From the IMG/VR virus record IMGVR_UViG_2534681759_000011: a stretch of 37,514 nucleotides of DNA; one strand, given 5' to 3'. Positions 3,628 through 35,771 of the stretch are shown in pieces. The notes under the pieces were generated by a model, which was given only the letters and a program-made list of their open reading frames with translations, searched no databases and was not told the origin of the DNA. Both the position numbers and the translations under genes were made by a program. Position 1 is the stretch's first letter, and each line of letters starts with the position of its first letter. Origin of the DNA: a virus (taxonomy: Duplodnaviria; Heunggongvirae; Uroviricota; Caudoviricetes).

Positions 3628-3635
3628 AGGGCGTT

Positions 3636-5141: not shown

Positions 5142-5372
5142 ATGGCAAACCGCAAACAGCACCGCGCTATCGCGGAGCGTCGTCACATCCAGACTGAAAT
5201 CAACCGCAGACTTTCCCGCGCATCACGCGTCGCGCAAATCATGCACATCAATATGCTGCATGAGCGTAGCTGCGAACTTTCAAACCTCTATTCATCCGCT
5301 GTTTTCAGTTATCTGGCGGATGATCTGCGCGAGCTTCAGCAGCTCATCCAGCAGCAAAACAAACTCCATTAA
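5142..5372 (+). CDS. Hypothetical small basic protein (76 aa)
   Basis: Arg-rich N-terminus; follows a GC-rich structured intergenic region; weak RBS. Confidence 0.3.
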   Translation: MANRKQHRAIAERRHIQTEINRRLSRASRVAQIMHINMLHERSCELSNLYSSAVFSYLADDLRELQQLIQQQNKLH

Positions 5373-5444
5373 TTCCTGTTCCGGGCCTTTCCTGCACCTT
5401 GCGGCGGGAGGCCTTCGCACATCTGTAACAAGAGGATTGCCGCA

Positions 5445-7724
<2,280 letters not shown>

Positions 7725-7776
7725 ATTGACAACAGTCTGCCGCGACACCCTGAATGGCATAACGAAGTAAATCACT

Positions 7777-18579: not shown

Positions 18580-19380
18580 ATGATTACTCCTGCACAGCAA
18601 CACTGGCAGAACGTGATGGCACAGCGCGCAGGCCGGGCGAATGAAGGCGTGGACCATGCCGCGCGTACCGCGCATGAAGAGGTGCTGTATCGTCTGCGTC
18701 TGGCACAAGCCCGGCTTAAGGGCGTACAGGCCAGAAGCGCGAAAGCCGCCATCAAAAAAGAGTTGTTGCCGGATTTTTCCGGCTGGATTGAGGGAACGCT
18801 GGAGGCTGACGGCGGGCAGCAGGATGAAGTGATTGCCACGCTGATGGTGTGGGCGATTGACTGTGGCGATCTTCCGCTTGCGCTGCGTATCGGCGCGTAT
18901 GTGGTCCATCACAACCTCATCATGCCGGATAACTTTGGCCGTACTGCTGCCACGGTACTGACCGAAGAAATCTGTAATCCGGTACTGACGCAGGCCGGGA
19001 CGGATGCCGACGCGGATTTGTCCGCCTTTATCGAACCACTGGACACCCTCCGGGAGATTGTCACCGACCAGGACATGCCGGACGAAGTGCGCGCCAAATT
19101 ATGCAAAGCGTGCGCCTTTGCCCGCCGTGGCCTGACCGATGCGGACAGCATGGCCTCATCACTGAAGCTGCTGCGCGAAGCGATGCACCTGAACCCGAAC
19201 GCAGGTGTGAAACGCGAGATTGCAACCCTTTCCCGCGCCCTGAAAAAAGCCGATTCCGCAGCCGCACCAGAAGATGCCAGCACACCGCAGGCGCAGGACG
19301 AAAGCAGCAAAAGTAAAAAGACAACGCGGAAGCCTGCAACACGAAAAACCACCGCGACGCAGAAGGCGAAGCGCGGTTAA
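18580..19380 (+). CDS. M: Terminase small (endonuclease) subunit, P2 gpM family (266 aa)
   Basis: Position after N and remembered gpM similarity; basic C-terminal tail. Confidence 0.8.
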   Translation: MITPAQQHWQNVMAQRAGRANEGVDHAARTAHEEVLYRLRLAQARLKGVQARSAKAAIKKELLPDFSGWIEGTLEADGGQQDEVIATLMVWAIDCGDLPLALRIGAYVVHHNLIMPDNFGRTAATVLTEEICNPVLTQAGTDADADLSAFIEPLDTLREIVTDQDMPDEVRAKLCKACAFARRGLTDADSMASSLKLLREAMHLNPNAGVKREIATLSRALKKADSAAAPEDASTPQAQDESSKSKKTTRKPATRKTTATQKAKRG

Positions 19381-19483
19381 CGACTGACCCCGTCAGCGGG
19401 CGGCGTGCGCGGTGTTCCGGTTTGACTCCGTGACCGTTTACACCGCGCACCCACCGCCCGATTTTTTTCAGGAGTGAACCCCC

Positions 19484-19978
19484 ATGAGTATGGTTGCCAG
19501 AACTGAACCAAGACCCGCAGAGGACGACATCACCGATACCGATGATGGTGATACCCGTATTTCAGCGGGTGCATTCTGGCCGGATATTGTGCTGCGTGAG
19601 CTGCGTCTGGCGATACGACTGCCGGGCCGTGTGACCACCTCCCGCCTGCTGCATACCGCCACCGGGGCAGTGGCACACGTTACCCGCGAGCTGGAAGCGT
19701 GGCAGCAGGAACAGCAGGCGGCTGGCCATCTGACGCTGGCCGATGTTCCGGCATCCGTAATTAACGGAGAAAGCGTCAATCTCTGGCACTGGCGCAATGC
19801 TGTTTATACCGCCACACGCGCCCTGATTCTGGAGCGTTACCGCGATGCGGACACAACGGACAAGGGCGACCGCAGGGCGGACGCACTGGATATACAGACA
19901 TCGGATTTGTGGCGTGATGTGAGCTGGGCCATCTCTGACATTCTGTGCCGCCCGCGAATCTTTGCGGAGTTGTGCTGA
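19484..19978 (+). CDS. L: Head completion/stabilisation protein, P2 gpL family (164 aa)
   Basis: Position and size; stop overlaps the X start (TGATG). Confidence 0.8.
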   Translation: MSMVARTEPRPAEDDITDTDDGDTRISAGAFWPDIVLRELRLAIRLPGRVTTSRLLHTATGAVAHVTRELEAWQQEQQAAGHLTLADVPASVINGESVNLWHWRNAVYTATRALILERYRDADTTDKGDRRADALDIQTSDLWRDVSWAISDILCRPRIFAELC

Positions 19979-20178
19979 TGAAAGTAAAGGCACTGGAAGG
20001 CGACACCGTGGATTCGCTCTGTTTCCGGTACTACGGCACGACGCAGGGCGTCACCGAAAAGGTGCTGGATGCCAACCCCGGACTCTGTCAGCAGGTATTT
20101 CTGGACGCCGGGCAGGAAGTGGAGATGCCGGAGCCGGAGAAGAAGAAACGAGAAATGATTCAGTTGTGGGGGGAGTAG
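19978..20178 (+). CDS. X: Tail protein X, P2 gpX family (66 aa)
   Basis: MKVKALEGDTVDSLCFRYYG… typical of gpX; annotated ORF starts 33 nt upstream in frame. Confidence 0.75.
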   Translation: MKVKALEGDTVDSLCFRYYGTTQGVTEKVLDANPGLCQQVFLDAGQEVEMPEPEKKKREMIQLWGE

Positions 20179-20180
20179 CA

Positions 20181-20504
20181 GTGAGCACCATTCAAACAGG
20201 GATCACAGAGCAGGTTATTGCGTGGCTCTTTGACCACCTGCCAACGGTGTATGCAGTAGGCGCGGCGGTCAGCATTTCCGCGCTGATGAGTCTTTATGAC
20301 GGACGAACACTGGTTCAGACCGTAACGGGATCGCTGGCGTGCGGCGTTCTTGCCATGGCCGTGGCCGGGTCGTTGCGCTTCTTCGGGTTTCCTGAAGATG
20401 CCGTGACGTTTATCGGCGCATCAATCGGTTTTATGGGTGCAGAGAAAGCACGCGACAAGGTTATTGCGGCCTTTAATCGCAGGGTGAAGGAGAAAGACGA
20501 ATGA
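20181..20504 (+). CDS. Y: Holin (107 aa, GTG start)
   Basis: GTG at 20181 behind GGGGAG; three hydrophobic segments; position as P2 gpY; the longer annotated ORF from 19962 overlaps L and X. Confidence 0.65.
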   Translation: MSTIQTGITEQVIAWLFDHLPTVYAVGAAVSISALMSLYDGRTLVQTVTGSLACGVLAMAVAGSLRFFGFPEDAVTFIGASIGFMGAEKARDKVIAAFNRRVKEKDE

Positions 20505-20893
20505 GCAACACATTTAAATTCAGCAGCCGGAGCGAAAAGAATTTGCAGGGCGTAAATCCTGATCTGGTGAAAGTGACCCGACGAGCACTGGAAATCTCGG
20601 AAGTGGATTTTGGTATCACCGAAGGGTTGCGCAGCCGTTACCGCCAGAAGCAACTTGTGGCCACAGGTAAGAGCCAGACCAGGAACAGCCGCCACCTTAC
20701 GGGGCATGCCGTGGATGTTGTGGCTTATATCGGCAGCCAGGTGTCATGGGAATGGCCGCTGTACGAAAAAATCGCAGCAGCATTCAGACAGGCCAGCCGG
20801 GAACTGAATATTCCGGTGGAATGGGGCGGCGACTGGAAGACCCTGAAAGACGGACCGCATTTTCAGTTACCACACGGAGCCTATCCGGCATGA
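20501..20893 (+). CDS. Endolysin, peptidase M15 (L-Ala-D-Glu endopeptidase-like) family (130 aa)
   Basis: Candidate zinc ligands in SRHLTGHAVDV and GGDWKTLKDGPHFQ; replaces the lysozyme found in P2 itself. Confidence 0.7.
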   Translation: MSNTFKFSSRSEKNLQGVNPDLVKVTRRALEISEVDFGITEGLRSRYRQKQLVATGKSQTRNSRHLTGHAVDVVAYIGSQVSWEWPLYEKIAAAFRQASRELNIPVEWGGDWKTLKDGPHFQLPHGAYPA

Positions 20894-21297
20894 AGCTCTG
20901 GCCCACGCTGGGCGTCGCTTTCCTTCTGATTGCCGCATGGGGAACATCCATGCGTCTGTCGTGGTCGCTGGGCCGGGAGAACGCCAGAAACGAAGCGCAG
21001 GCCAGCACCCTGAAAAGTACCGTCGACACCCTGAATATCATCAGCGCCGGGGTACAGGATATGCAGCAGGTGCTGGCACAACTCCGCGTGGAAAATCAGC
21101 AACGCAATCAGGACGGAGAAGCCAGACGTGAACAGCTACGCAACGATATTGCAAAAGATGAATGCGCCCACGCTTTGCCTGATGCTCGTTTTACTGACAG
21201 GTTGCGCAGGCACGCTGAACGCGCCACGGCCAGCGCCGTCAGTCCGGCTTATACCGCAGACGCTGACCATACCGGTAACGCCTCCCCCCGTCCCTGA
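20890..21297 (+). CDS. lysB: LysB / Rz-like inner-membrane spanin component
   Basis: ATG overlaps the endolysin stop (ATGA); N-terminal transmembrane helix LWPTLGVAFLLIAAWG. Confidence 0.6.
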   Translation: MKLWPTLGVAFLLIAAWGTSMRLSWSLGRENARNEAQASTLKSTVDTLNIISAGVQDMQQVLAQLRVENQQRNQDGEARREQLRNDIAKDECAHALPDARFTDRLRRHAERATASAVSPAYTADADHTGNASPRP

Positions 21298-21448
21298 CAC
21301 TCCCACATGGGGAAATCTCGGTATATGGGGCGACCGCCTTCTGGATGCACTGGAAACCTGTAACGCGGATAAACGGGCCATTGAATTACTGGAACAGCGC
21401 AGGCTGCAACGACTGAACAACGAGGACAACAACCATGCTGAAAACTGA
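21158..21448 (+). CDS. lysC: LysC / Rz1-like outer-membrane lipoprotein spanin component
   Basis: Lipobox LLTGC after a short signal peptide; overlaps lysB in another frame; Pro-rich. Confidence 0.5.
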   Translation: MNAPTLCLMLVLLTGCAGTLNAPRPAPSVRLIPQTLTIPVTPPPVPDTPTWGNLGIWGDRLLDALETCNADKRAIELLEQRRLQRLNNEDNNHAEN

Positions 21449-21902
21449 TTCCCTGCGTGAAGCCATGACCCGTTCATGCCGATGGTGTCAGGCCAACCCG
21501 GAAAAATTCACCATTTTCGTGGAGAGCGGCAACATTGAAACGACCGGAGAAACGCCCTCGTTTGTTTAACGCTATCAGATGGTGATGTTTGTCATGGATT
21601 ACGCCGGGGAGCTGGACGACCTCACGCTGCCGCTACTGGCGTGGTTATCCGAAAATCAGCCACAGTTGTTGCTCAATCCGGAGCGTAATCAGGACATCAA
21701 ATTTTCCGCCGTTATCAATGACGATGACAGCGCCGATCTCCTGTTTACGCTCCCCCTGCGGGAACGCGTTCGCATTACGCGCAACAGTCAGGGGACACCG
21801 CAGGCAGAACACCTGCCGGAGCCAAAACCCCGTCTGCCCTCTTCCGAAGGCGACTGGTCGCATGTATTCCAGGATGTGACGTGGGGTGAAAGCAATGGAT
21901 AA
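21435..21902 (+). pseudogene. R: Tail completion protein R, interrupted by an in-frame TAA at 21567-21569
   Basis: A 44-codon ORF with good RBS (GAGGA) ends at TAA; the same frame resumes 9 nt later for 107 codons with no RBS of its own; combined length about 155 aa. Confidence 0.5.
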
Positions 21903-22530
21903 GGCATTCACCCGTGTGGATGAAACCTTTGAGGCCATCCGTGACAGCCTGAATCAGCAGGTCATCAATAACATCGCCAGAAAGCTGGCACAGGATTTAC
22001 GCCGCGCCCAGCAGGCACGTATCCGGTCACAGAAAGCGCCGGACGGGACCGCGTGGACACCTCGCAGACGCCGCGTAACCCGGATACAGGAGCGCATTCG
22101 CTTTATCTGGAATAACGAAGCACGCACGCTGAAAAACTGGCATCACGACACGGGGAAATACGGGCGAACCATTACCGGGTGGGATGAGGATAAAAACAAT
22201 ATCCGCACGTTTTACCGGGATGACATCGACCGTTTTCTGGAAATACGCACCCGGCGCATCAACCAGGACAGCACAAAGCGCGTCCCCATGTTCGTAAAAC
22301 TGCGCACCGCCCGCTACCTGAAAGCCCGTGCAGATGCTTCCGGTGTGACGGTGGGTTACAGCGGCGTGGCCGCACGTATTGCACGCGTTCATCAGTTCGG
22401 TGAGCGCGATCAGGTTGCGCCGGGCATTTTCACCGATTACCCGGTACGTGAGCTGCTGGGTATCAGTCAGGCAGATGAACGCCTGATTTATAACACGGTA
22501 CTGGGCCGGATTGCGGAGGCTGTACGGTGA
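21895..22530 (+). CDS. S: Tail completion / virion morphogenesis protein, gpS-like
   Basis: Position between R and V; start overlaps the R stop. Confidence 0.65.
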   Translation: MDKAFTRVDETFEAIRDSLNQQVINNIARKLAQDLRRAQQARIRSQKAPDGTAWTPRRRRVTRIQERIRFIWNNEARTLKNWHHDTGKYGRTITGWDEDKNNIRTFYRDDIDRFLEIRTRRINQDSTKRVPMFVKLRTARYLKARADASGVTVGYSGVAARIARVHQFGERDQVAPGIFTDYPVRELLGISQADERLIYNTVLGRIAEAVR

Positions 22531-23108
22531 GCGCAGAACTCATGCGACTGCTGAGCAACATCATCCGTACCGGGATCATCTCTGAAGTTGATGAGAAATC
22601 CTGGTGCGTGCGCGTTCGTAGCGGCGAACTGGAAACAGGCTGGCTGCGCTGGAACACCACGCGCGCGGGAGCCTTCAACGTGTGGCTTCCACCATCACCA
22701 GGCGAACAGGTGGTAATTGCCTGCATCGGCGGCAACCCTGAAACCGCCATGATAATTGGCAGTCTGTGGAGTGATGCCAATCCGGCACCCGGCAAAAACC
22801 TGAAAGAAATCGTGGTCAGCGCGCCGGATGGCGCGGTGTTCCGCTACGACGCAGACGCTGGCGCACTGAGCGCCAGCGGCATGAAAACAGCCACCCTGCA
22901 GGCATCCGTCAGCGTGACACTGGATACGCCCGTCGTGGAATGCACAAACCTTCTGAGAACAGCGACGCTTGACGTCACAAAAGGAGGAAAGATGAGCGGC
23001 AATATCACGCACAGCGGCGGCAGCTTCACCTCAAACGGCATCACAGTGCATACGCATAAACACGGCGGCGTTAAAGGTGGCAGCGATTCGACAGGAGGCC
23101 CGCAGTGA
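22527..23108 (+). CDS. V: Baseplate spike/assembly protein, P2 gpV family (193 aa)
   Basis: Position and size; Gly/Ser-rich C-terminus. Confidence 0.8.
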   Translation: MSAELMRLLSNIIRTGIISEVDEKSWCVRVRSGELETGWLRWNTTRAGAFNVWLPPSPGEQVVIACIGGNPETAMIIGSLWSDANPAPGKNLKEIVVSAPDGAVFRYDADAGALSASGMKTATLQASVSVTLDTPVVECTNLLRTATLDVTKGGKMSGNITHSGGSFTSNGITVHTHKHGGVKGGSDSTGGPQ

Positions 23109-23455
23109 CAACCCGCTACACAGGAATGAATCCGGACGGGACGGGAAACCTGAACGATATGGAGCACCTGAAACAGTCAGTCAGGGACATCCTGACCACC
23201 CCGCTGGCAAGCCGGGTTATGCGACGGGAATATGGCAGCCTTGTGCCTGATTTGATTGACGAACCCATGAATAACACCACGCGTCTGCAATGCATGAGTG
23301 CTGCCGTGATTGCGCTGACACGATGGGAACCCCGCATTGCCCTGGATGCCATCGACGTTGTCTGGAAAGCGGGAGGCCGCGCCGGGGTGACGTTGTCGGG
23401 CACTGTCATGCAGACCATGCAAAATGTTGAATTAACCATCACGCTGAGGGAGTAA
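23105..23455 (+). CDS. W: Baseplate wedge protein, P2 gpW family (116 aa)
   Basis: Size and position; remembered gpW similarity. Confidence 0.8.
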   Translation: MTTRYTGMNPDGTGNLNDMEHLKQSVRDILTTPLASRVMRREYGSLVPDLIDEPMNNTTRLQCMSAAVIALTRWEPRIALDAIDVVWKAGGRAGVTLSGTVMQTMQNVELTITLRE

Positions 23456-23457
23456 TC

Positions 23458-24354
23458 ATGCCTGCCGTTGACCTTGCCCAGTTACCGGAACCCGCCATCA
23501 TCGCGGAGCCTGATTTTGAGGCAATTCTGGCTGACACAAAGGCCATGATGATTGCGTCCTATCCTGCTGAACAGCGTGAAGCCGTCTCCGCCGCGCTGGA
23601 GCTGGAATCGGAACCCCTGAACGTTATCGCCCAGGCAACAGCGTTTCGTGAAATGCTGTTACGCCAGCGGATCAATGAGGGTGCACGCGCCTGCATGCTA
23701 AGCCACAGCGCCGGGACAGACCTGGACAACCTCGCGGGCAATATGAACACAAAGCGCCTGGTTATCACTCCGGCAACGGATACCACCGACGCAGTGATGG
23801 AAAGTGACACCTCGCTGAGACTGCGGGCGCAACGGGCGTATGACGGTCTGAGTGTTGCTGGCCCGTCAGGTGCATACGAGTATTTTGCACGCAGCGCCAG
23901 CGGTCTGGTACGCGACGCGCGGGCCATCAGTCCGTCTCCGGCAAATGTGACGGTTTCCATCCTGTCCACTGAAGGCGACGGCACAGCAACGGAGGCGTTG
24001 CTTAATACCGTTCGCGCCGTTCTGAATGCAGAGGATACCCGCCCGGTGGCCGACCGCCTGACCGTACAGAGTGCCAGAATCGTGACATGGCGGCTGAATG
24101 CAAAACTGTACTTTTACCCCGGCCCGGAATCCGAACCTATTCTGGCCGCGGCTGAATCGTCGTTCAGGAAGTGGCTGGCTGAGCAGGGGCTTATCGGTCA
24201 GGACGTGGCGTTGTCCGCCATTGCTGCCGCACTGCATGTGCACGGTGTGCAACGCGTGGAGATAATCGAACCCACACAGAATATGGCCATCAGCGACATA
24301 CAGGCGGCGCGCTGTGAGTCGTTCACCATCAGCGAAGGTGGGCGCAATGAGTAA
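23458..24354 (+). CDS. J: Baseplate protein J (298 aa)
   Basis: Size and position in the V-W-J-I-H order. Confidence 0.85.
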   Translation: MPAVDLAQLPEPAIIAEPDFEAILADTKAMMIASYPAEQREAVSAALELESEPLNVIAQATAFREMLLRQRINEGARACMLSHSAGTDLDNLAGNMNTKRLVITPATDTTDAVMESDTSLRLRAQRAYDGLSVAGPSGAYEYFARSASGLVRDARAISPSPANVTVSILSTEGDGTATEALLNTVRAVLNAEDTRPVADRLTVQSARIVTWRLNAKLYFYPGPESEPILAAAESSFRKWLAEQGLIGQDVALSAIAAALHVHGVQRVEIIEPTQNMAISDIQAARCESFTISEGGRNE

Positions 24355-24877
24355 TTCACTGTTACCACCATCAGCCAGCAGTTTCATGCGTTGTGCCGAA
24401 GCTGTCGGAACGCGCATTACAGACATCCCGGTAGACCTCAACACGCTGTGGTCGCCGGACACCTGCCCGGTGCACCTGCTGCCTTATCTCGCCTGGGCAT
24501 TTTCCGTTGACCGTTGGGATCGCAACTGGCCGGAAGAGGCAAAACGACAGGTGATTCGTGATGCATGGCTGATACACCGACACAAAGGGACCATCAGCGC
24601 ACTGCGCAGGGCCATTGAGCCGCTGGGATACCTCATTCGCGTGTCTGAGTGGTGGGAGTTCGGCGGAGAACCGGGAACATTTACCGTTGAAGTCGGCACA
24701 CTGGACAGTGGCGTGACGGAGGAAATGTATCTGGAAATGGAGCGGTTGATTGCTGATGCCCGCCCGGTCAGCCGCCACATGACAGGGCTGAATATCATTC
24801 AGGAGATCCCGGGAGATATTTTCGCGGCGGCAGCAACTTACGACGGTGAAGTCATTACCATTTATCCGGACGATTAA
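24347..24877 (+). CDS. I: Baseplate protein I
   Basis: ATG at 24347 overlapping the J stop; annotated ORF begins 33 nt upstream. Confidence 0.8.
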   Translation: MSNSLLPPSASSFMRCAEAVGTRITDIPVDLNTLWSPDTCPVHLLPYLAWAFSVDRWDRNWPEEAKRQVIRDAWLIHRHKGTISALRRAIEPLGYLIRVSEWWEFGGEPGTFTVEVGTLDSGVTEEMYLEMERLIADARPVSRHMTGLNIIQEIPGDIFAAAATYDGEVITIYPDD

Positions 24878-24879
24878 GC

Positions 24880-26439
24880 ATGAGTACCACAACACGTAAA
24901 TTTAAAACCGTTATCACCAATACGGGTGCCAAAAAATTAGCTCAGGCAGCCGCGCCAGATGGTAAGCCTGTCCGCCTGACTCATATGGCCGTGGGTGACG
25001 GCGGCGGCACTTTACCCTCGCCAGACAGTAAGCAGACCCGTCTGGTGCATGAGGTGTGGCGACACACTGTTAATCGCGTCTTCCTGGACGCAACACATCA
25101 GAACCGCATTATTGCGGAGCTGGTTGTTCCTCCAGAAACGGGCGGATTCTGGATCCGGGAAATTGGTGTGTTTGATGAGCACGGCGATTTAATCGCAGTA
25201 GGCAATACTGCCGAAAGTTACAAGCCAACCGTTGCCGAAGGGTCAGGACGTGCACAAACATTTCGCACCATTCTGACCGTATCCAGCACTGCCACTATGG
25301 CGCTTACCGTGGATAACACCATGGTAATGGCCACAGTGGATTACGTGGATGACAAACTGAAAGAGCATGAACAGTCACGACGTCACCCGGACGCCTCGCT
25401 GACCGCAAAAGGCTTTGTTCAACTTAGCAGCGCCACTAACAGCACATCTGAAACGCTGGCTGCGACACCTAAGGCTGTTAAGGCAGCATATGACCTGGCT
25501 AATGGCAAATACACCGCACAGGACGCAACCACTGCGCGGAAAGGGATAGTTCAGCTCAGTAGCGCCACTAACAGCACATCTGAAACGCTGGCTGCGACAC
25601 CTAAGGCTGTTAAGGCAGCATATGACCTGGCTAATGGCAAATACACCGCACAGGACGCAACCACTGCGCGGAAAGGGATAGTTCAGCTCAGTAGCGCCAC
25701 CAACAGCACGTCTGAAACGCTTGCGGCAACGCCAAAGTCTGTTAAGGCGGCATATGACCTGGCTAATGGCAAATACACCGCACAGGACGCTACCACTGCG
25801 CGAAAAGGGATAGTTCAGCTCAGTAGCGCCACTAACAGCACATCTGAAACGCTGGCTGCAACGCCGAAAGCAGTAAAGGCCGCATATGACCTTGCTAACG
25901 CAAAATATACCGCTCAGGACGCAACGACGGCACGAAAAGGGATAGTTCAGCTCAGTAGCGCCACTAACAGCACATCTGAAACGCTGGCTGCGACGCCAAA
26001 AGCTGTTAAGGCGGTAATGGATGAAACGAACAAGAAAGCGCCCTTAAACAGTCCTGCACTGACCGGAACGCCAACAACGCCAACTGCGCCAAAAGGGACT
26101 AATAATACTCAGATCGCAAGCACGGCTTATGTGATGGCCGCGATTGCCGCACTTGTAGACTCGTCGCCTGACGCACTGAATACGTTGAACGAGTTAGCGG
26201 CGGCGCTGGGAAACGACCCGAATTTTGCGACCACCATGACTAAAGCGCTTGCGGGTAAGCAACCGAAAGATGCCACCCTGACGGCGCTGGCCGGGCTTGC
26301 TACTGCGGCAGACAAGTTTCCGTATTTTACGGGGAATGATGTCGCCAGCCTGGCAACCCTGCAAAAGTCGGGCGGGATATTCTTGCGAAATCGACCGTTG
26401 CCGCTGTTATCGAATACCTCGGTTTACAGGAAACGGTAA
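24880..26439 (+). CDS. H: Tail-fibre protein H, constant N-terminal part; frame breaks near 26366
   Basis: N-terminus MSTTTRKFKTVITNTGAKKLAQAA… matches remembered P2 gpH; contains 132-bp tandem repeats; the conserved continuation KVGRDILAKSTVAAVIEYLGLQETVN is in the -1 frame from 26364. Confidence 0.75.
   Translation: MSTTTRKFKTVITNTGAKKLAQAAAPDGKPVRLTHMAVGDGGGTLPSPDSKQTRLVHEVWRHTVNRVFLDATHQNRIIAELVVPPETGGFWIREIGVFDEHGDLIAVGNTAESYKPTVAEGSGRAQTFRTILTVSSTATMALTVDNTMVMATVDYVDDKLKEHEQSRRHPDASLTAKGFVQLSSATNSTSETLAATPKAVKAAYDLANGKYTAQDATTARKGIVQLSSATNSTSETLAATPKAVKAAYDLANGKYTAQDATTARKGIVQLSSATNSTSETLAATPKSVKAAYDLANGKYTAQDATTARKGIVQLSSATNSTSETLAATPKAVKAAYDLANAKYTAQDATTARKGIVQLSSATNSTSETLAATPKAVKAVMDETNKKAPLNSPALTGTPTTPTAPKGTNNTQIASTAYVMAAIAALVDSSPDALNTLNELAAALGNDPNFATTMTKALAGKQPKDATLTALAGLATAADKFPYFTGNDVASLATLQKSGGIFLRNRPLPLLSNTSVYRKR
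25411..26010 (+). repeat. In-frame tandem repeat, 132-bp unit, about 4.5 copies, inside the tail-fibre shaft
   Basis: Repeated 44-aa unit ARKGIVQLSSATNSTSETLAATPKAVKAAYDLANGKYTAQDATT; unit starts at about 25411, 25543, 25675, 25807 and 25939. Confidence 0.85.
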
Positions 26440-27384
26440 ATCAGGCTTCTGGTGCATTACAGAAAAAACAGAACGGCGCAGATATTCCAGGAAAAGATAC
26501 CTTCACCAAAAATATTGGTGCCTGCCGCGCATATAGCGCATGGCTGAATATTGGTGGCGATAGTCAGACCTGGACAACCGCACAATTCATTTCGTGGCTG
26601 GAGAGTCAGGGGGCATTTAACCATCCTTACTGGATGTGCAAAGGCTCATGGGCTTATGCAAACAATAAGGTCATTACAGATACAGGTTGCGGAAATATTT
26701 GTCTTGCAGGTGCTGTGGTGGAAGTTATTGGCACTCGCGGCGCAATGACCATACGCGTTACTACGCCGAGTACATCCAGCGGTGGCGGAATTACTAACGC
26801 TCAATTCACCTATATTAATCATGGTGATGCTTATGCTCCTGGCTGGCGACGAGACTACAACACGAAAAACCAGCAGCCTGCATTTGCTTTAGGGCAAACA
26901 GGAAGCAGGGTTGCAAATGATAAAGCTGTTGGCTGGAACTGGAATAGCGGCGTTTATGATGCAGATATCAGTGGCGCATCGACATTAATCCTCCACTTTA
27001 ATATGAATGCGGGGAGTTGCCCTGCTGTACAGTTCCGCGTGAATTATAAAAACGGCGGTATCTTTTATCGTTCAGCGCGTGATGGTTATGGTCTTTGAAG
27101 CTAACTGGTCAGAGTTTTACACCACAACCCGCAAACCCTCTGCGGGGGATGTTGGTGCATATACGCAGGCAGAATGTAACTCAAGGTTTATTACAGGTAT
27201 TCGCCTGGGCGGTCTGTCATCTGTTCAGACATGGAATGGTCCCGGCTGGTCTGACAGGTCAGGTTATGTCGTTACGGGTTCAGTTAACGGAAACCGTGAT
27301 GAATTAATTGATACAACTCAGGCAAGGCCAATTCAGTATTGCATTAATGGAAGGTGGTATAACGCGGGGAGTATTCAATTATGA
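26370..27384 (+). pseudogene. Tail-fibre variable C-terminal segment, expressed orientation; reading frame broken
   Basis: Open in the -1 frame from about 26364 to 27098, then continues in another frame from 27079 to 27384 ending [13 protein letters not shown]; glycine-rich distal-fibre character. Confidence 0.5.
26407..26432. promoter_or_regulatory. gix/hix/cix-type recombination site (left inverted repeat of the invertible segment)
   Basis: TTATCGAATACCTCGGTTTACAGGAA; close to the remembered Mu gix consensus and an inverted copy of the site at 29336-29361; lies inside the tail-fibre reading frame. Confidence 0.75.
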
Positions 27385-27914
27385 TGCACTTAAAAACATT
27401 ACTGCTGGCAACCCTAAAACAAAAGAGCAATACCAGCTAACGAAACAATTTAACATCAAATGGCTTTATTCAGATGATGGAAAAAACTGGTATGAGGAAC
27501 AAAAGAACTTTCAGCCTGATACGTTGAAAATGGTCTATGACCGTAACGGCGTTATTATTTGTATTGAAAAGGATGTTTCAGCAATTAATCCAGTAAGGCG
27601 CAAGCGTCGTTGAATTACCTGATATTACAGCAAATCGCCGGGCTGATATTTCGGGTAAATGGATGTTCAAAGATGGCGTAGTGATAAAGCGAACTTATAC
27701 CGGGGAAGAGCAGAGGCAGCAGGCAGAGAATGAAAAGCAAAGCCTGTTGCAACTTGTCAGGGATAAAACCCAGTTATGGGACTCACAGCTACGGCTGGGC
27801 ATCATTTCCGACGAGAGTAAACAAAAATTAACAGAGTGGATACTCTTTGCGCAGAAAGTCGAATCTACAGACACTTCCAGCCTGCCAGTAACATTTCCCG
27901 AACAACCTGAATGA
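27381..27914 (+). pseudogene. Tail-fibre assembly chaperone, expressed orientation; split by frameshifts
   Basis: Pieces [25 protein letters not shown]… and …[22 protein letters not shown]… parallel the intact minus-strand paralogue but lie in different frames; the A-run at 27392-27396 and the region near 27592-27600 separate the frames. Confidence 0.5.
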
Positions 27915-27942
27915 GACAAGGCCCGATAGCGGGCCTTAATTT

Positions 27943-28470
27943 TTATTCAGGCTTTTGTGGCCATTCAGGATTTGCCGTATCCACACGGCTGACCAGAACA
28001 CTGTAGCGTTCCCATGCTTCCAGTCGTGTGCGCTCCTCGTCTGTTGCCATATTCAGCCTGGCAGCGCGTTCCAGTGGCTGGATGACTGATTCAGTTTCGG
28101 AAAGCAATGCGGCCTTTTGTGATTCGGCCTGTTGTTGCTGTTCGTCTGCTGTATAAATCCGCTTAACCACAGTTCCGTCCTTAAACATCCACTTCCCTGA
28201 ATCATCGGCACGACGATTGACTGTTATATCTGGAATCTCAACGACACTAAAGCCTTCGGGATTAAGCGTTGAGGCATCTTTGGTTATGGCAACAATAATA
28301 TTATTTTCGTCGTAAACAATCTTTATGGTGTCTTCCTGAAAGCTATTTACTTCCTCATACCAGTTTTTACCGTCTTCTGTATATAACCAGATAACATCAA
28401 AATTCTTTGTTAGCTGATATTGCTCTTTTGTTTTTGGATTTCCTGACTTAATATTTTTTAAATGCTGCAT
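27943..28470 (-). CDS. Tail-fibre assembly chaperone, alternative copy inside the invertible segment (175 aa, intact)
   Basis: [24 protein letters not shown]… typical of tail-fibre assembly proteins; silent in the present orientation. Confidence 0.8.
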
Positions 28471-28473
28471 AAT

Positions 28474-29335
28474 TTACACCTGTGCTACGTTATACCATGT
28501 GCCATTGATGTATTTTTGTATTGGTCTGAAGATGGCTTCATCATCGCCATCTACTTCACCAATGATTCTTAATCCGGTAATTGCGTGTCCGGCTTTTTCA
28601 TAACGACCACCACGCGCCATCAATTGAACAACTCGCGTACCCAGGCGAACATCTTTTACATAGCGTGAATCAAAATTCCCCCAGTTGCTGGGCTGTATCT
28701 GACCGTTAACAGAAAATATTACCGAGTTATCTGTATTTCGCTGGCTATAGAAATGCCATCCTGCCTCATCGCCTAACTCTGCAACTACTGGACGGGTTGA
28801 AGCACCCCATAAATTAAACGTTACATTCTTTGTGGAGGTGTTGGAGCTGGATAGCGAGATTTTTTTACATCACCTGCCTGAATGTTTTTAAAAGCAATAG
28901 CAACTCCATTCTGAAAGCGGAATACTCGCTGACTATTAGCGTAAACATCAAGAATACCGTCTCCATTCTGTTTAAATCCGGTATCATTATCACCAAGAAC
29001 AATAGAGCTACCACCTAACGCATTCGTCGTACCAACTCCAAGGCTGCCATTAATGACGGCATTAACAAGAATATTTAGTGCATCCCATTTCAGCGTCATC
29101 AGGTCTTTTGTTGTGGTGCCCTGGCGGCTTCTCCATTTGAAATATTCATTGCCGTTGTCGCCTGTTTCTAAACCAACATGAATGAATCAGTATCGCTGTC
29201 GGCATCATTTTTAAATCCAATCTTCGCCCAGTCAGTATTTCGAATCCAGGCAAGGATTGAGTCGTTTTCAAAAGTAAGCCCACCGGACAAGGTATCGCCA
29301 TTCTTTTGCACGGCGTTCCTGGCCCTGTTTACCGT
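28474..29335 (-). pseudogene. Alternative tail-fibre C-terminal segment (P2 H-like), promoterless and frameshifted
   Basis: Minus strand encodes LGLQETVNRA…GLTFENDSILAWIRNTDWAKIGFKNDAD…, …LETGDNGNEYFKWRSRQ…TLKWDALNILVNA… and a C-terminus INGTWYNVAQV, matching remembered P2 gpH, but in three frames; breaks near 29164-29180 and at the T7 run 28860-28866. Confidence 0.6.
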
Positions 29336-29361
29336 TTCCTGTAAACCGAGGTTTTAGATAA
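29336..29361. promoter_or_regulatory. gix/hix/cix-type recombination site (right inverted repeat)
   Basis: TTCCTGTAAACCGAGGTTTTAGATAA, near-identical to the remembered Mu gix sequence; immediately upstream of the invertase gene. Confidence 0.8.
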
Positions 29362-29415
29362 TGGCCGTTTCTGGCCTGCATGGCATGATTTGCGCTTTTG
29401 GACGGGAGATTCAGT

Positions 29416-30003
29416 GTGCTGATTGGCTATGTAAGGGTATCAACAAATGACCAGAATACAGACCTGCAACGAAACGCTCTTGTTTGTGCAGGATGTGAAC
29501 AGATATTTGAAGATAAATTAAGCGGGACAAAGACAGACCGACCGGGATTAAAACGCGCTTTAAAGCGCCTTCAAAAAGGTGACACGCTGGTTGTCTGGAA
29601 ACTGGATCGCCTCGGGCGAAGCATGAAACATCTGATTTCTCTCGTCGGGGAACTACGGGAGCGAGGGATTAATTTTCGCAGTCTGACCGACAGCATAGAT
29701 ACATCTTCTCCAATGGGGCGTTTTTTCTTCCACGTGATGGGGGCCCTGGCTGAAATGGAACGTGAATTAATTGTTGAACGTACACTGGCCGGACTGGCGG
29801 CAGCGCGCGCACGGGGGCGCACAGGCGGACGTCGACCGAAGCTGACAAAAGAACAGCATGAGCAAATAGCAAGGCTGATTAAAAACGGTCACGACAGAAA
29901 ACAACTGGCAATAATTTACGGCATTGGTATATCGACGATTTATCGTTACCACCCCGCAGGAGAACCAAGCGGAACAATTGAGAAGAGTCAGGAAACAAAA
30001 TAA
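29416..30003 (+). CDS. Serine DNA invertase, Gin/Hin/Cin/Pin family
   Basis: GTG start behind GGGAGA; N-terminus (M)LIGYVRVSTNDQNTDLQRNAL… with catalytic Ser; nearly matches remembered Mu Gin over the catalytic domain; C-terminal HTH. Confidence 0.9.
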   Translation: MLIGYVRVSTNDQNTDLQRNALVCAGCEQIFEDKLSGTKTDRPGLKRALKRLQKGDTLVVWKLDRLGRSMKHLISLVGELRERGINFRSLTDSIDTSSPMGRFFFHVMGALAEMERELIVERTLAGLAAARARGRTGGRRPKLTKEQHEQIARLIKNGHDRKQLAIIYGIGISTIYRYHPAGEPSGTIEKSQETK

Positions 30004-30031
30004 CCGCTAATCTGACCATTAGCGGTTTTTG
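30004..30031 (+). terminator. Rho-independent terminator after the invertase gene
   Basis: Hairpin CCGCTAAT-N6-ATTAGCGG followed by TTTTT; sits between convergent genes. Confidence 0.6.
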
Positions 30032-30038
30032 TGTTAAA

Positions 30039-30533
30039 TCAGAACATCCCTTTAACTGAACTGGCCGCGCTGTTAAGAGATGATGTCACCTTATCTTTGA
30101 AGCCGGACAGCATATCGCTGAATGATGAGGATTGCAGGCGCTCCCGCAAATCCTCATCACAGCGTTCAAGTGTCAGTGAAAATTCTATCTTTTTCGCCTT
30201 ACCGTAGCGATCAAACTCGGAACGGGTCGTATTCGTTCCGGTCAGGACATACATGCCGTAAATCTGCCCGACACCATCAATCAGAGGCCAGGGGCGTCCT
30301 GTATATGCCTGCGTGGTCAGCAGCGAAAGCGACACTTCGCCACCTGTAATTTCAGGATAAAGCACGCCAGAAAGCACGATGCGATCATCACCTGCACCGA
30401 TATACTGCCAGCTTGCTGAGCGGTTTACGCGCTCATTTTTCACATGCCGCCAGCTTTTGTTTTGCTGTAACTGCTGATGCGGCAATGTGCGCAGCTCAAA
30501 AACAAACATGCCGTAGATCATCATCATGGCCAT
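30039..30533 (-). CDS. U: Tail protein U, P2 gpU family (164 aa)
   Basis: Size and position downstream of the tape measure gene. Confidence 0.75.
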   Translation of the reverse strand: MAMMMIYGMFVFELRTLPHQQLQQNKSWRHVKNERVNRSASWQYIGAGDDRIVLSGVLYPEITGGEVSLSLLTTQAYTGRPWPLIDGVGQIYGMYVLTGTNTTRSEFDRYGKAKKIEFSLTLERCDEDLRERLQSSSFSDMLSGFKDKVTSSLNSAASSVKGMF

Positions 30534-30539
30534 GACTCC

Positions 30540-33383
30540 TCAATCTTTATCGTAAAAACTGCCACGTCCGGCACGGGCGCGCCGTTCCATTTCTGCCCTG
30601 ACCATTTCACCGACCAGTTTCGCCAGTTCGCGGGGATTCTGTGTAACAACGTTATGCAGATGAACATGAATTTCACCGCCAAATCCGGAGGCAACAGGCT
30701 CCCGGTTACGGGAATTTGCAGGAACTGATGCCACTGGCGATCGTATAGCCTCCGCCACCGGGCGGGAGCTGGCCGCAACAACAGGGACCAGCGCCGGAGG
30801 CAGCGGAGCCGGAACCACGGGTGTGATAGTAATTGCGGGGGCAGGCTTACTGACCTGCGCAATCTTCCGCTCCTGCCACTCCCCACGAACAGCAAGTGCG
30901 CGGGGCAGGTTCTTAAAGACAATATCACCGGGGCCAATGCGTTTTTTCGTCTCATCAACCAGCTTACCTGTGTTATCAGCAATTTTGCTGAGTCTGCGTA
31001 GCGTACCGGTATTGCTGTCTGTGAGTGGTTTGTTGTCTTTGGGTTTATCACCTCCGGTGCCATTGCCATTTTCCACAGGCTTCGGCGGATTGATTTTCGC
31101 CAGGTCCCCCTGAAGCAAGGCAACCTTGTCCTGAAGAATGGCCGCACGCTGTGCGTCTTCGATTTTCTTGCGCGCCCTTTCAGCTTCATCCGGAAGGACG
31201 CCAAGTTTTTCAAGTATCCACGCCAGCGTATCCAGTAGCATTTTTGCAGGTGTCAGAACAAGCTGTAACGCACCGCCAAGAACGTTACCGAATATCTCGC
31301 CAGCACTGGTACATTTATCCAGCGTTTCCTTACTGGACTCCATCGGTGACAGCAGCGATTTAAACCAGTTAAACACCTGGCTGATCCCGCTTCCGATTGC
31401 GTCAAAAACAGGGCCAAACCGTTCAAAGGTTTCGCGCAACGGAGCCAGCCGTTCCATAATCCCACTGAACACCCCTGCATAAAACGCCTTGATGGGTTCC
31501 CAGTATTTCCAGATGAGAACCGCCGCAGCCACAAACGCAGCAGCAATCAATCCGACCGGACTGAACAGCGCCCCGATAGCGCCTCCCAGTAACGAAATGG
31601 AACCCGTCACCATTCCCCATAATGCAGGCAGAACCCTGACAACATTCAATGATCCGGTCAGGAGGGAAAAACCAAGACGCAGTTTTGCCAGTGGGCCAGC
31701 AAGCACACCAATAGCCAGCGACAACGAGCCTATGGTTGCAGTCATTGCCAGCAGAGCACCGCCTGCAACCAGTAGCTGGCGCGTCAGTGCCGGATGGGCC
31801 TGCGCCAGCGCCGTCACCTTCGATACCACCCGCGTGAGCCACTGCGTGACAGAACGCTGCGGACCGTCAATCAGATCTGCAATGCGGATGCGCACCCCTT
31901 CCCATGCACTGCCGAGTGATTTCAGATCGCCGTCAAGGTTGTTGGCCATAACCTTTGCTGTGCGTTCAGCCTCACCGCGCGCGCCTTCAAGTTCTTTTCT
32001 CAGTTTGGGTAAGGAGCCGTCACCTGCCGCATCAACGAGGGCCATAAATGATGTGAAAGCCTCTTCTCCGGCAATATCCTTAAAGAACGATACCCGGTCA
32101 ACTTCCCCGTATTTGCGGGTGGCTTTATAAAGGTCAGCCAGCAGATCTTCCATCGGGCGCATTTTGCCGTTCGCGTCAGAGACGGACACGCCCAGCTCTT
32201 TCAGCGCCTCTGCTGCTGCCTTTGGCGGTGATGCCAGACGAGCCAGGCTGGCACGCATTGCCGTCCCGGCATCACTCCCTCTGATACCCATATTCGCCAG
32301 CACGCCAGCCATCGCTGCAGCCTGCTCCAGCGATATTCCCAGCTTACCCGCCACCGGACCGGCATATTTCATGGTTTCGCCCAGTGCGCGAAGGTCAGTG
32401 TTGGTACGGGTAAACGCTGCAGTGAGTGTGTCACCGACCCGGTCCATCTGGTCAGCAGAAAGGCCGAACTGCGTCAGGATATTTGAGCCAATATCCGCCG
32501 TCTCGCCGAGATCCATACCGCCAGCCGTTGCCATGCTCAACACGCCGGGAAGCGCAGCCTGAATGGCCTGCGGTGTGAAGCCAGCCATTGCAAGAAATGC
32601 CTGCCCACTGGCGGCATCGCCTGCGGTGAACTGCGTTTCAGAGCCAAGTTTTAACGCCTGCTCACGCAGCGCCTTAAACTGCGGGCTGTTCTGGTCGATT
32701 CGCGTCAGCGCCTGAACGCGGGACATCTCTTTCCCGAACCCGATTGCGGGCTGCAAAAAACGCCCGGCAGCATAGCCGCCCGCCGCTGCCGCACCAATTG
32801 CCAGTACACCACCTGTTTTCAGTTTTCCCGCTGTTTCCTGCGCACGCGAATACCGCTCACGCGCCCGCGTTACACGCGTAAGCGACTGCCGTTCGCGTTC
32901 AAGCTGGTTGTTGTACTGTTCGGTGCGCCTGATGGCCTGTTGAATGGTGTTATCGCTGCCTGTCAGGGAAATGCCGTGGCGTTTCAGCTCTCCGCCAAGC
33001 TCCCGCATTTTCTGAATTTCCCGTATGCGCGATTCATTCAGGCGTTCAAGCCGGGTGCTTAACTGCTGCATCAGCTTTTGTTGCTTTTCGCTGAGCACTG
33101 TACCCGTGCGTTGTAACTGATTAAGGGCGTTAAGCTGGCGTCGTGCTTTCACGATACCCGCATCCGCTTTACTGACAGCGTCGCGGGCGCGCTCAAATGA
33201 ACGCGCCTGACGCTCGAGATTTTTGATCGCCCCCTGCGTTCGCTGGATGGAGTCACCAAACTGCCCCATCAGGCGGCGGGCGTTTTCGGCAGGCCGGGTC
33301 AGCCTGTCAACGGCGCTGAAAGCGACCCGGATATCAAGAGTCTTCATTGTCTGCATTCCCGCTGCGAAGTGCCGCCCGCTCAC
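30540..33383 (-). CDS. T: Tail tape measure protein, P2 gpT family (947 aa)
   Basis: Long, Ala/Gly-rich, helical with hydrophobic central segments; uninterrupted 2.8-kb reading frame. Confidence 0.85.
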   Translation of the reverse strand: MSGRHFAAGMQTMKTLDIRVAFSAVDRLTRPAENARRLMGQFGDSIQRTQGAIKNLERQARSFERARDAVSKADAGIVKARRQLNALNQLQRTGTVLSEKQQKLMQQLSTRLERLNESRIREIQKMRELGGELKRHGISLTGSDNTIQQAIRRTEQYNNQLERERQSLTRVTRARERYSRAQETAGKLKTGGVLAIGAAAAGGYAAGRFLQPAIGFGKEMSRVQALTRIDQNSPQFKALREQALKLGSETQFTAGDAASGQAFLAMAGFTPQAIQAALPGVLSMATAGGMDLGETADIGSNILTQFGLSADQMDRVGDTLTAAFTRTNTDLRALGETMKYAGPVAGKLGISLEQAAAMAGVLANMGIRGSDAGTAMRASLARLASPPKAAAEALKELGVSVSDANGKMRPMEDLLADLYKATRKYGEVDRVSFFKDIAGEEAFTSFMALVDAAGDGSLPKLRKELEGARGEAERTAKVMANNLDGDLKSLGSAWEGVRIRIADLIDGPQRSVTQWLTRVVSKVTALAQAHPALTRQLLVAGGALLAMTATIGSLSLAIGVLAGPLAKLRLGFSLLTGSLNVVRVLPALWGMVTGSISLLGGAIGALFSPVGLIAAAFVAAAVLIWKYWEPIKAFYAGVFSGIMERLAPLRETFERFGPVFDAIGSGISQVFNWFKSLLSPMESSKETLDKCTSAGEIFGNVLGGALQLVLTPAKMLLDTLAWILEKLGVLPDEAERARKKIEDAQRAAILQDKVALLQGDLAKINPPKPVENGNGTGGDKPKDNKPLTDSNTGTLRRLSKIADNTGKLVDETKKRIGPGDIVFKNLPRALAVRGEWQERKIAQVSKPAPAITITPVVPAPLPPALVPVVAASSRPVAEAIRSPVASVPANSRNREPVASGFGGEIHVHLHNVVTQNPRELAKLVGEMVRAEMERRARAGRGSFYDKD

Positions 33384-33497
33384 GCCAGCTAACCACTTCG
33401 CCGGGCGTCATCATGAAGATTTCGGCGGGCGACCAGTTAAAAATAACGGCAATATCTGCCACAAAGTCTTCTATGTGCTCAAAGCACACAACCGTGA

Positions 33498-33863
33498 TCA
33501 GGCTTCCGTCGCCTGTTCGTTCTTCCCGCCAGAGTCCGCACCGCTCAAAAAATTTACGGCAACCACACATAACTGAATAAAGTCACGGGATGCCATTTTT
33601 TTGATCGTCACTTCATCCAGTCGCGGTGATGTCACGCGTGACAGCAGCGTAAACATGGATTCCGCTTTCAGATTCAGCACATCAGACAACGACAAATCTC
33701 GCAGAGATCCAGCCTGCTCAATAGCTCCGGTGATCTCCACATACGTGATTTTTTCGCCGCCTCGCTCAATTGGTTGGGTAAGTTTTACGCCACGCTCACT
33801 GGTTTCTTTCACAGTGTCAGCAACGACCGTGTTTTCGGTATCGATGTTTTTCGTCTCTTTCAT
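33498..33863 (-). CDS. E: Tail assembly chaperone E; the E' product extends to 33334 by programmed -1 frameshift
   Basis: E frame ends …VNFLSGADSGGKNEQATEA; the -1 frame entered at the TTTTTTG slip site continues KFFERCGLW… to a stop at 33334, overlapping the T start. Confidence 0.75.
   Translation of the reverse strand: MKETKNIDTENTVVADTVKETSERGVKLTQPIERGGEKITYVEITGAIEQAGSLRDLSLSDVLNLKAESMFTLLSRVTSPRLDEVTIKKMASRDFIQLCVVAVNFLSGADSGGKNEQATEA
33545..33551 (-). promoter_or_regulatory. Slippery heptamer T-TTT-TTG for programmed -1 ribosomal frameshifting (E to E')
   Basis: Minus-strand sequence AAATTTTTTGAG; same slip site as described for P2 E/E' and analogous to lambda G/GT. Confidence 0.6.
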
Positions 33864-33917
33864 CAGGAAACTCCTTTCAGTCAGAGGCGACGCACTGCGC
33901 CGCCTGCATATTACTTA

Positions 33918-34430
33918 TCAGCCAAGCCCAAGCGCGGAACGGATGCGATCGGGCACAATGTCCTTGCCGTCCTTCCGGTAAATGAAGTTCAGCAGGTCAA
34001 TCTCCCACAACGGGCGATCGTTAACACTCAGCTTGTAGTAGGTGTTTTTAATGGCGTAAGTGTGTGATGTGGCTTCGCCCTGTTTGGCTTCCCCCATATC
34101 AATTTCCGTCACACGTCCGCGCATTTCGACTTCATACAGGTCGCTTTCTGCATCGGTGTAGTATTCACCCGCAAAACGCAGCAGCGTGCCGTCAATCGTG
34201 CCGCCATACTTCAGGAACAGCTCACGAACTGCGCCCCCCATGACAAAGCTCGCATCAAGCGCGGAGTCGTCCAGACCGAGATCAATACTTACCGCACCCA
34301 TCATGCCACCACCCCGGTAGCTGTCGGTTTTGCGCGTCAGCTTAGGCAGAGTGACGGACGTCACCTTACCCACTTCGTTTTCACCATCCACAAACAGCGT
34401 AAAAAAGCGAAGATGTTTTGGCACAGCCAT
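33918..34430 (-). CDS. FII: Tail tube protein, P2 gpFII family (170 aa)
   Basis: Size and position after the sheath gene. Confidence 0.85.
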   Translation of the reverse strand: MAVPKHLRFFTLFVDGENEVGKVTSVTLPKLTRKTDSYRGGGMMGAVSIDLGLDDSALDASFVMGGAVRELFLKYGGTIDGTLLRFAGEYYTDAESDLYEVEMRGRVTEIDMGEAKQGEATSHTYAIKNTYYKLSVNDRPLWEIDLLNFIYRKDGKDIVPDRIRSALGLG

Positions 34431-35614
34431 CAGGCACCTCCCAGCACCGCAAATGCAGGTTCAAAGTATTCATCAGTAAACGTCTGGTAAAGCTCCATGT
34501 CTTCCAGTGGCGGAACAGGCGTATATTTGTAGCGAATACGCACACGCCCCTGACGTAAATCCGTGGTGCTGTTATCCACCACGTCATACCAGCACTCCGC
34601 GCCAATCAGTTTCCCGGCAGTAACCAGTGAATCCAGTTTTGCCCTGATGGCACTGATAACATCCTTCACGTTCGCAGGCGTCAGTGGACTGTCGATGGTT
34701 TCAAACTGCGCTTCTGCAATTGAATCAGCCAGCACCTGTGCGGTTCGGGTATACACCTCAAAGATGTAGGCGTTCGTTTCCGGTGTGCGGTTGCCCCAGA
34801 AGCGGAACCCGTTGCGACGAATAATGGTCGTGATTTCTTTGTTGTTGAGGCTGTTGGCATCACTGTCTTCGGCCTGCAACGACCAGAACACATGCCTGGA
34901 CATTCCCAGCACATTTTTAACAGGAACGTTGGACAGCGATTTGTGCCAGCCCTGCTCATGGTCAATGTACGCACGAAGGCCGCACGCATAGGCAGGCGCG
35001 GGGAACGTTTCGTTTTTGCCACTTTTCGGGTTGTAGGCGATGAAGTCCGGCCATAAGAGCATCACCTCACGTTCGTTGAATTTCTGGCGGTAGGTAATCG
35101 CCTCAGCCATCGTGTTACAGCCGTGACATGAGGCATACACAAACGCGCGCAGTTTACCCGCAATCACGCACAGGGATTTTGTTACCGCCTCCGTGTCCAG
35201 CTCCGGCGCGGCCAGAATACGCGGACGGTATCCGATGCTTTCATCCTGCTCTGCAACAAGCAGCGCATACATCCCCGTATAGCTGCCGTCAGATTCAGAA
35301 CCACCGATAACCAGTTGATCCTGCGTTTTTCCGTCTTCTTCTTTGTGTTCAGCCACGCGAACGACGATCACCTTTGTGCTCACCTGGTCTGCGATGGCCT
35401 TAAGCGCACGATAAAGCGTCCCCGTTGTCCCGCATTTTCCCAGCACGTCATTGACGCGGGTCAGCAGTGTGGGCTTGTTCAGCGGGAACAGCTTCGCGTC
35501 CGCATCATCCGCCGTTGCCACGATACCGATAACGCTGGAATCAACATCGTTAATCGCTGTTACCAGGTCGGTATTTTCCGTAACACGGGCACCATGAAAA
35601 CGAGTTTCACTCAT
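34430..35614 (-). CDS. FI: Contractile tail sheath protein, P2 gpFI family (394 aa)
   Basis: Size and remembered gpFI similarity. Confidence 0.9.
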   Translation of the reverse strand: MSETRFHGARVTENTDLVTAINDVDSSVIGIVATADDADAKLFPLNKPTLLTRVNDVLGKCGTTGTLYRALKAIADQVSTKVIVVRVAEHKEEDGKTQDQLVIGGSESDGSYTGMYALLVAEQDESIGYRPRILAAPELDTEAVTKSLCVIAGKLRAFVYASCHGCNTMAEAITYRQKFNEREVMLLWPDFIAYNPKSGKNETFPAPAYACGLRAYIDHEQGWHKSLSNVPVKNVLGMSRHVFWSLQAEDSDANSLNNKEITTIIRRNGFRFWGNRTPETNAYIFEVYTRTAQVLADSIAEAQFETIDSPLTPANVKDVISAIRAKLDSLVTAGKLIGAECWYDVVDNSTTDLRQGRVRIRYKYTPVPPLEDMELYQTFTDEYFEPAFAVLGGA

Positions 35615-35771
35615 AGCTTCAGCCCCTTGTATCCGTTAAATGATTCGGCAACAATCATCACCCACCACGCGCGTAATCTCACCCCTGCGCCGTTCTCCCG
35701 CCACGGCGACAACAAAAAGCAGTAACCCCCTCCGCACGCACATGCGACCATGCCGCACAGGGAGGGAGCAG

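Follow-up and report, generated by a model that had tools for sequence, protein, structure and literature searches.

A five-copy run of the PF03406 repeat in the tail-fibre gene of a P88/P2-like Escherichia coli prophage and the probable recent origin of its second unit

The stretch of DNA analyzed here (hereafter the window) is the 37,514-nucleotide viral record IMGVR_UViG_2534681759_000011 of IMG/VR. It carries, in the constant part of a tail-fibre gene, a tandem array with five copies of the PF03406 repeat. Taking all lines of evidence together, we are confident that the five-copy run is genuine and that its unit 2 is a recent addition and the remaining units are old; the units are putative modules of the fibre stalk, as their position and a low-confidence structural model suggest. 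The PF03406 match and the P2-like gene order thus identify the array as a run of a long-catalogued repeat in the tail-fibre gene of a P2-like prophage. The feature as such is already known: it combines a known repeat, a known type of gene and an ordinary copy-number polymorphism. It was rated in this way because the five-copy protein is already present in RefSeq (WP_099483571.1, "tail fiber protein"), the repeat is PF03406 and the gene is of the P2 gpH/P88 type. What is added by the present analysis is the reconstruction of a single four-to-five event and the setting aside of an assembly artefact.

The window extends from an integrase gene (1-1002) to a gpD gene (35640-36881), and its gene order is that of phage P88. 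Judged from the sequence, the source is a P88/P2-like prophage of E. coli (Peduoviridae, Xuanwuvirus-type). The tail-fibre gene, the equivalent of P2 gene H, was delimited at 24880-27378 on the plus strand from the list of open reading frames, the alignment to the genome NZ_CP024240 and the Pfam matches, and it would encode 832 amino acids if intact. The corresponding coding sequence of NZ_CP024240 has 2499 bp, is intact and is annotated in RefSeq as "tail fiber protein". The N-terminal domain PF12571 (Phage_tail_fib; phage tail-collar fibre, N-terminal) was matched at 178 bits (E = 1e-52) over residues 6-153, encoded by 24895-25338 on the plus strand. Judging from the family name and the position, this domain presumably joins the fibre to the baseplate. 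Upstream of the gene lies a gpI homologue (PF09684); downstream there are two opposed Caudo_TAP assembly genes (PF02413), a serine invertase gene and gpU. The PF12571 N-terminus and the order baseplate J, I, H, assembly gene G are both those of a P2 gpH-type fibre gene. The PF03406 (Phage_fiber_2) profile was matched in five stretches, the best of which spans positions 1-41 of the 42-position profile. The summed score is 335.9 bits (gathering cut-off 22), and the match falls, as expected for this family, in a phage tail-fibre protein. No essential difference from the family as described (InterPro IPR005068, "phage tail fibre repeat") was observed; the present protein has more copies than the best-known carriers.

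Tandem Repeats Finder returned a single array at 25417-26012 with a period of 132, 4.5 copies, 91% matches, no indels and a score of 961, and an identical 132-nt register was obtained with a second, independent repeat search. The array lies in frame with the open reading frame called at 24880-26439 on the plus strand, and its period corresponds to 44 codons. In the codon register, the array occupies 25402-26016 on the plus strand and comprises four complete units of 132 bp (44 codons) followed by a fifth of which only the initial 29 codons are present, with five copies of the PF03406 motif. All on the same strand, these are unit 1 (25402-25533), unit 2 (25534-25665), which we take to be the newest copy, unit 3 (25666-25797), unit 4 (25798-25929) and the partial unit 5 (25930-26016). 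The first-pass annotation of this DNA had described a 132-bp in-frame tandem repeat of about 4.5 units, and its place, period, copy number and frame all agree with the results of Tandem Repeats Finder, the repeat search and the list of reading frames; the 44-residue sequence that it gave is exactly that of unit 2. Compared with this sequence, there is one changed residue in unit 3, one in unit 4 and three in unit 1. Unit 5 has its first 29 residues in common with unit 2 and then continues with VMDETNKKAPLNSPAL.

At the DNA level, adjacent full units differ from each other at 10-20 of 132 nt and non-adjacent ones at up to 25. The sole perfectly periodic stretch is that in which 25429-25568 is repeated as 25561-25700 (a 140-bp run at an offset of 132, 272 bp in all). 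The units had been called near-identical in DNA, which is true of 25429-25700 and too strong a description elsewhere, where full units differ at 10-25 of 132 nt. In unit-versus-unit comparisons, dS was 0.3-1.1 and dN/dS was 0.015-0.21, and the differing sites are mostly synonymous. The low dN/dS therefore argues for strong purifying selection on each unit at the protein level. Moreover, most units are old paralogues according to their dS of 0.3-1.1, and recent expansion is therefore limited to a single unit, unit 2.

The origin of unit 2 was analyzed by removing one unit (25429-25560) in silico and searching with the resulting 1069 bases. The shortened sequence was found as a single ungapped piece, with 100.0% identity over 1069 bases, in the complete genomes of DS26-1 and E300010; it was found with 99.9% identity in ETEC6 and E70, 99.2% in H10407 and 97.2% in N63. 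When the full genes were compared, the five-copy allele of 2499 bp and the four-copy allele of E300010 (2367 bp) showed 0 mismatches and one 132-bp gap, and the genes neighbouring the two alleles encode the same RefSeq proteins. Unit 2 has 21 informative sites, and they separate cleanly: the 11 within positions 1-27 agree with unit 3 without exception, and the 10 within positions 36-126 likewise agree with unit 1. The putative crossover or slippage interval is 25561-25568 (plus strand), between the last site matching unit 3 (25560) and the first site matching unit 1 (25569); the same interval corresponds to the 8 bp by which the perfect run of 140 bp exceeds the period of 132 bp.

The two alleles differ by an integral number of units and the junction unit is chimeric. 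As read from the alleles, the chimeric unit 2 and the one-unit difference together bear the mark of a single unequal crossover (or replication slippage). According to the proposed mechanism, units 1 and 3 of a four-copy parent underwent in-register unequal crossover or replication slippage, which would have produced unit 2, and the four-copy parent allele is still in circulation among other strains of E. coli. By parsimony we infer that the change went from four to five copies and not from five to four, because four-copy alleles are found in more, and more divergent, backgrounds (e.g. H10407 and N63), and because only the five-copy allele holds a pair of perfectly identical stretches. The gene offers a clean natural case of one-step unequal crossover in a phage structural gene, with the exchange mapped to 8 bp and with both the putative parent and the product alleles present in sequenced ETEC-type genomes.

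With the N-terminal domain before it and the invertase crossover site after it, the array is part of the constant region of the fibre. The left inverted repeat (26407-26440) is located inside the fibre coding sequence, where it reads IEYLGLQETV in the intact frame, and marks the end of the constant part. The right inverted repeat (29328-29361) is 94% complementary to it over 34-nt arms. The invertible segment between the two repeats (26441-29327) contains the Mu S'-like receptor-binding part of H (26441-27378, plus strand), a tail-fibre assembly gene (27381-27914, plus strand), which is frameshifted in the window, a second assembly gene (27943-28470, minus strand) and an alternative C-terminal fibre part (28474-29327, minus strand), likewise frameshifted in the window. 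The adjoining gene at 29416-30003 (plus strand) encodes a serine DNA invertase with Resolvase and HTH_7 domains, annotated as a recombinase family protein in NZ_CP024240 and as a DNA invertase in P88. Two database proteins, P0027 (832 aa) and P0025 (804 aa), have residues 1-521 in common, including all five repeats, and then continue with different heads. The same five-repeat constant part can thus carry either of the heads, which shows that sequenced genomes include both orientations. An invertase gene next to a segment whose inverted repeats lie inside fibre coding sequence, and two alternative C-terminal heads which have their own assembly genes in opposite orientation and are observed in both orientations, are the features of a segment of the Din family. 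The head that is in frame in the orientation of the window (L001 7530-8499) is about 97% identical to Mu S' (PDB 8JU3); this P2-like prophage carries a head of the Mu G(-) type.

Relative to NZ_CP024240, eight private 1-bp indels were detected over 18881-30576 (at 23453, 26361, 27092, 27391, 27594, 28868, 29169 and 29175), seven of them within 26361-29175, in or beside the invertible segment. When E300010 and ETEC6 were used for comparison, all seven indels of 25540-34351 fell within the same 2.8-kb stretch. Three further 1-bp gaps are found in the IS100 copy of the window. Owing to the private indels, three reading frames are shifted: those of the fibre gene, of one assembly gene and of the alternative fibre part. 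Two of these indels, the deletion of 1 bp at 26361 and the insertion of 1 bp at 27092, disrupt the fibre frame, which is uninterrupted in NZ_CP024240; the called reading frame ends at 26439 because the deletion at 26361 shifts the frame 46 nt before the left inverted repeat. Of 732 matching records from complete genomes, not one shows this deletion. The seven clustered indels are probably consensus errors derived from a population of mixed orientation, because they occur without substitutions and because indels of this kind are confined to the two-orientation segment and a multicopy insertion sequence; real decay is also possible. Since the fibre gene is frameshifted past the array, the copy in the window may not make a functional fibre.

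The comparison of copy number among related prophages, which the first-pass annotation had proposed, showed that the number varies: relatives in IMG/VR have 1 to 8 copies, and complete E. coli genomes have 1 to 5. The IMG/VR relatives were picked by similarity of the N-terminal domain alone, blind to the number of repeats, and 64 of them had complete open reading frames. Among these, one copy was found in 7, two in 19, three in 25, four in 10, and five, seven and eight in one each, with a main motif spacing of 44 residues. Complete E. coli genomes, sampled at even spacing, gave spans that fit 1, 2, 3, 4 and 5 copies, two and three being the commonest. As stated in the first-pass annotation, P2 gpH has fewer copies of a related unit, namely two motif copies (1.5 units) against the five found here. 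Distant relatives from Xenorhabdus, Photorhabdus and other genera, examined by a scan of contigs, have 0-1 copies and are usable as an outgroup only. The five-copy array of strain P13-6 (L002) resembles a three-copy array (L003) with two units added, which points to a separate route to five copies. Three IMG/VR arrays of one lineage, L120, L109 and L107 (starting at 2896, 4523 and 4523, respectively), have 6, 7 or 8 copies; the only difference among them is how many times a single 132-bp unit, 100% identical between its copies, is present. This series was considered as proof of stepwise expansion and was downgraded, the extra units being 100% identical and located on draft contigs, where collapse is possible. 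In a library of 1.84 billion proteins, the PF03406 unit was found at 84-92% identity in up to 12 copies per protein. Multi-copy fibres of this library with unrelated N-terminal domains include P0121, P0122, P0123 and P0124, in which the 44-residue unit sometimes alternates with a 56-residue variant containing HTHPWNQITGVP. Five copies lie in the upper tail of the distribution among close relatives and are neither unique nor extreme.

Based on its position, a weak structural model and the electron microscopy literature, each unit may be one structural module of the trimeric fibre stalk. The copy number would then set the distance of the receptor-binding head from the baseplate and leave the choice of receptor unchanged. 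An effect of copy number on fibre length is plausible on this model. In the AlphaFold2 single-chain model of residues 151-437, a periodic strand-strand-helix-helix pattern was predicted for each unit at low confidence (mean pLDDT 48). The Phage_fiber_2 repeat was originally recognized in Stf, the side tail fibre protein of lambda (PMC3368898). In rotary-shadowing electron microscopy, a region containing Pf2 was read as a globular bead between collagen stalks, a globular Pf2 domain was presumed, and the structure and function of this domain are described as little known (PMC3368898). A search for solved structures covering the PF03406 repeat found none; in the PDB, the only sequence matches are to the phage Mu fibre protein S (5YVQ, 9KI1 and 8JU3). 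The Mu fibre was considered as a structural template and was rejected, as the cryo-EM paper reports only that the fibre "N-terminus" was built, giving no residue range. Literature tying PF03406 copy number to fibre length or host range was sought and none was found, and the repeats are not discussed in the paper on P2 pseudotyping.

The earlier suggestion that the repeats are a source of assembly collapse or expansion was not borne out for the present array. A misassembly, either a spurious expansion or a collapse from a larger array, could be imagined, because reads shorter than about 270 nt cannot count the unit within the perfectly periodic 25429-25700, because the window shows signs of an imperfect consensus in other places as well (1-bp indels private to it, located in the invertible segment and IS100), and because the draft relatives with 6, 7 and 8 copies differ only by 100%-identical units, a pattern which collapse could give. 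Nevertheless, the same five-copy array is present in four independently deposited complete E. coli genomes (90-9280, ETEC-2264, TW10828 and LR882978), which were matched with the same score and have a span of 1562 bp for 24880-26440, against 1561 bp in the window. To one of these four, the complete genome NZ_CP024240, the window is 100.0% identical over 24880-26350, and the array shows no difference at all from the reference genomes. The units outside the single 272-bp stretch differ at 10-25 sites and are easily told apart, and the four-copy allele is also found in several complete genomes, so that both states are reproducible. An assembly artefact is therefore very unlikely, and we give this explanation almost no weight. 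Annotators can rely on the five-copy array in its assembled form, and only the unit within 25429-25700 requires reads longer than about 270 nt to be counted.

With the five copies taken as real and unit 2 as the product of one recent exchange, the question of what copy number does can be approached in several ways. According to one proposal, copy number is an adaptive and fast-changing length dial that tunes the reach of the fibre to the depth of the O-antigen or capsule and thereby affects adsorption and host range. In its favour, very close relatives have anything from 1 to 8 copies and other fibres as many as 12, otherwise identical alleles show one-step changes, five copies have been reached by independent routes (as in L002), and the strong purifying selection on every unit suggests a structural use of each. 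However, the literature search returned no link between repeat copy number and host range, and neutral unequal crossover in a tolerant stalk fits the same distribution of copies; we consider the adaptive proposal unlikely. A contingency-like form of it, in which stalk modules would be frequently gained and lost by RecA-mediated exchange, from 1 to at least 8 copies in one lineage, appears to us quite improbable. If a length dial were true, a temperate phage population would keep variants of fibre reach for differing O-antigens or capsules, independently of the head switched by the invertase, and the high synonymous divergence between units might reflect selection damping, but not abolishing, the instability. 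Another proposal is that the repeat serves as a shared block of homology for the exchange of fibre modules among phages of the P2, P1, Mu and lambda types, changes in copy number being a by-product. The unit is found at 84-92% amino-acid identity in fibres with very different N-terminal domains, and once in the Mu fibre protein S; the repeat and the DNA downstream of it have matches of at least about 90% in genes for "prophage tail fiber N-terminal domain-containing protein" and on plasmids; and units that sit at different positions in different prophages are most closely related to each other. Mosaic sharing of fibre motifs among P2, P1, Mu and lambda was reportedly described by Haggard-Ljungquist et al. 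in 1992 and is said to have been treated by Sandmeier in 1994 as well. The Sandmeier paper appears among the references of PMC8986868. Against this proposal, the synonymous divergence is high and the DNA homology between units is much weaker than the conservation of the protein; the high dS therefore indicates selection on the protein and not on the DNA. We regard it as a tentative possibility, and it is compatible with a genuine run of stalk modules with one recently added unit, not an alternative to it.

With regard to the engineering of phages or tailocins, natural fibres tolerate from 1 to at least 8 modules, and stalk length may be adjustable without touching the receptor-binding head. 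The current understanding of tail fibres is unchanged by these results, and their practical value is modest.

Several known systems resemble the present one. The N-terminal domain of P2 gpH is of the family found here, its gene occupies the corresponding place in the V-W-J-I-H-G operon, and P2 gene H shows 83.9% DNA identity over 81% of the constant part. P2 gpH shares the first unit and the terminal half-unit ending in VMDETNKKAPLNSPAL. It differs, besides its two motif copies, in lacking an invertible segment and an invertase and in having another receptor-binding C-terminus. The layout of Escherichia phage P88 is shared throughout: H is followed by two opposed assembly genes, an alternative fibre part and a DNA invertase gene, beyond which come the inverted gpU-to-sheath block and then gpD. 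In the constant part of H, the DNA is 89.8% identical to that of P88. The matching stretch of P88 is 1298 bp long, compared with 1561 bp in the window; it is shorter by 264 bp, the length of two units, so P88 has three motif copies. The S/S' G segment of Mu (and also the C segment of P1, the P segment of e14 and the Min segment of p15B) likewise combines a constant N-terminal part with heads switched by a serine invertase, and in Mu, too, the inverted repeats lie inside the fibre coding sequence. In Mu S the PF03406 repeat occurs once and the N-terminal domain is another one; the system described here is in a P2-like prophage.

Some further observations concern other parts of the prophage. The baseplate genes V, W, J and I at 22500-24900 carry about 90 substitutions relative to NZ_CP024240, whereas the fibre gene is identical; a sharp mosaic boundary lies at the start of gene H. 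The window has an IS100 element (IS21 family) at 5777-7643, in the early region, which shows the above-mentioned three 1-bp gaps relative to the NZ_CP024240 copy; in NZ_CP024240, IS100 is located instead at the point matching window position 30576, near the 3' end of the tape-measure gene. A full-length ParM/StbA gene, encoding an actin-like plasmid-segregation protein (PF06406 and PF21523), was found at 10661-11620, adjoining the homologue of replication gene A (7777-10584). Finally, the block containing the sheath, tube, E, tape-measure and gpU genes (30039-35614, minus strand) is inverted relative to P2, with the gpD gene (plus strand) beyond it. No convincing inverted repeats were found flanking the gpU-to-sheath block, and its inverted orientation is the normal layout of P88 (Xuanwuvirus).
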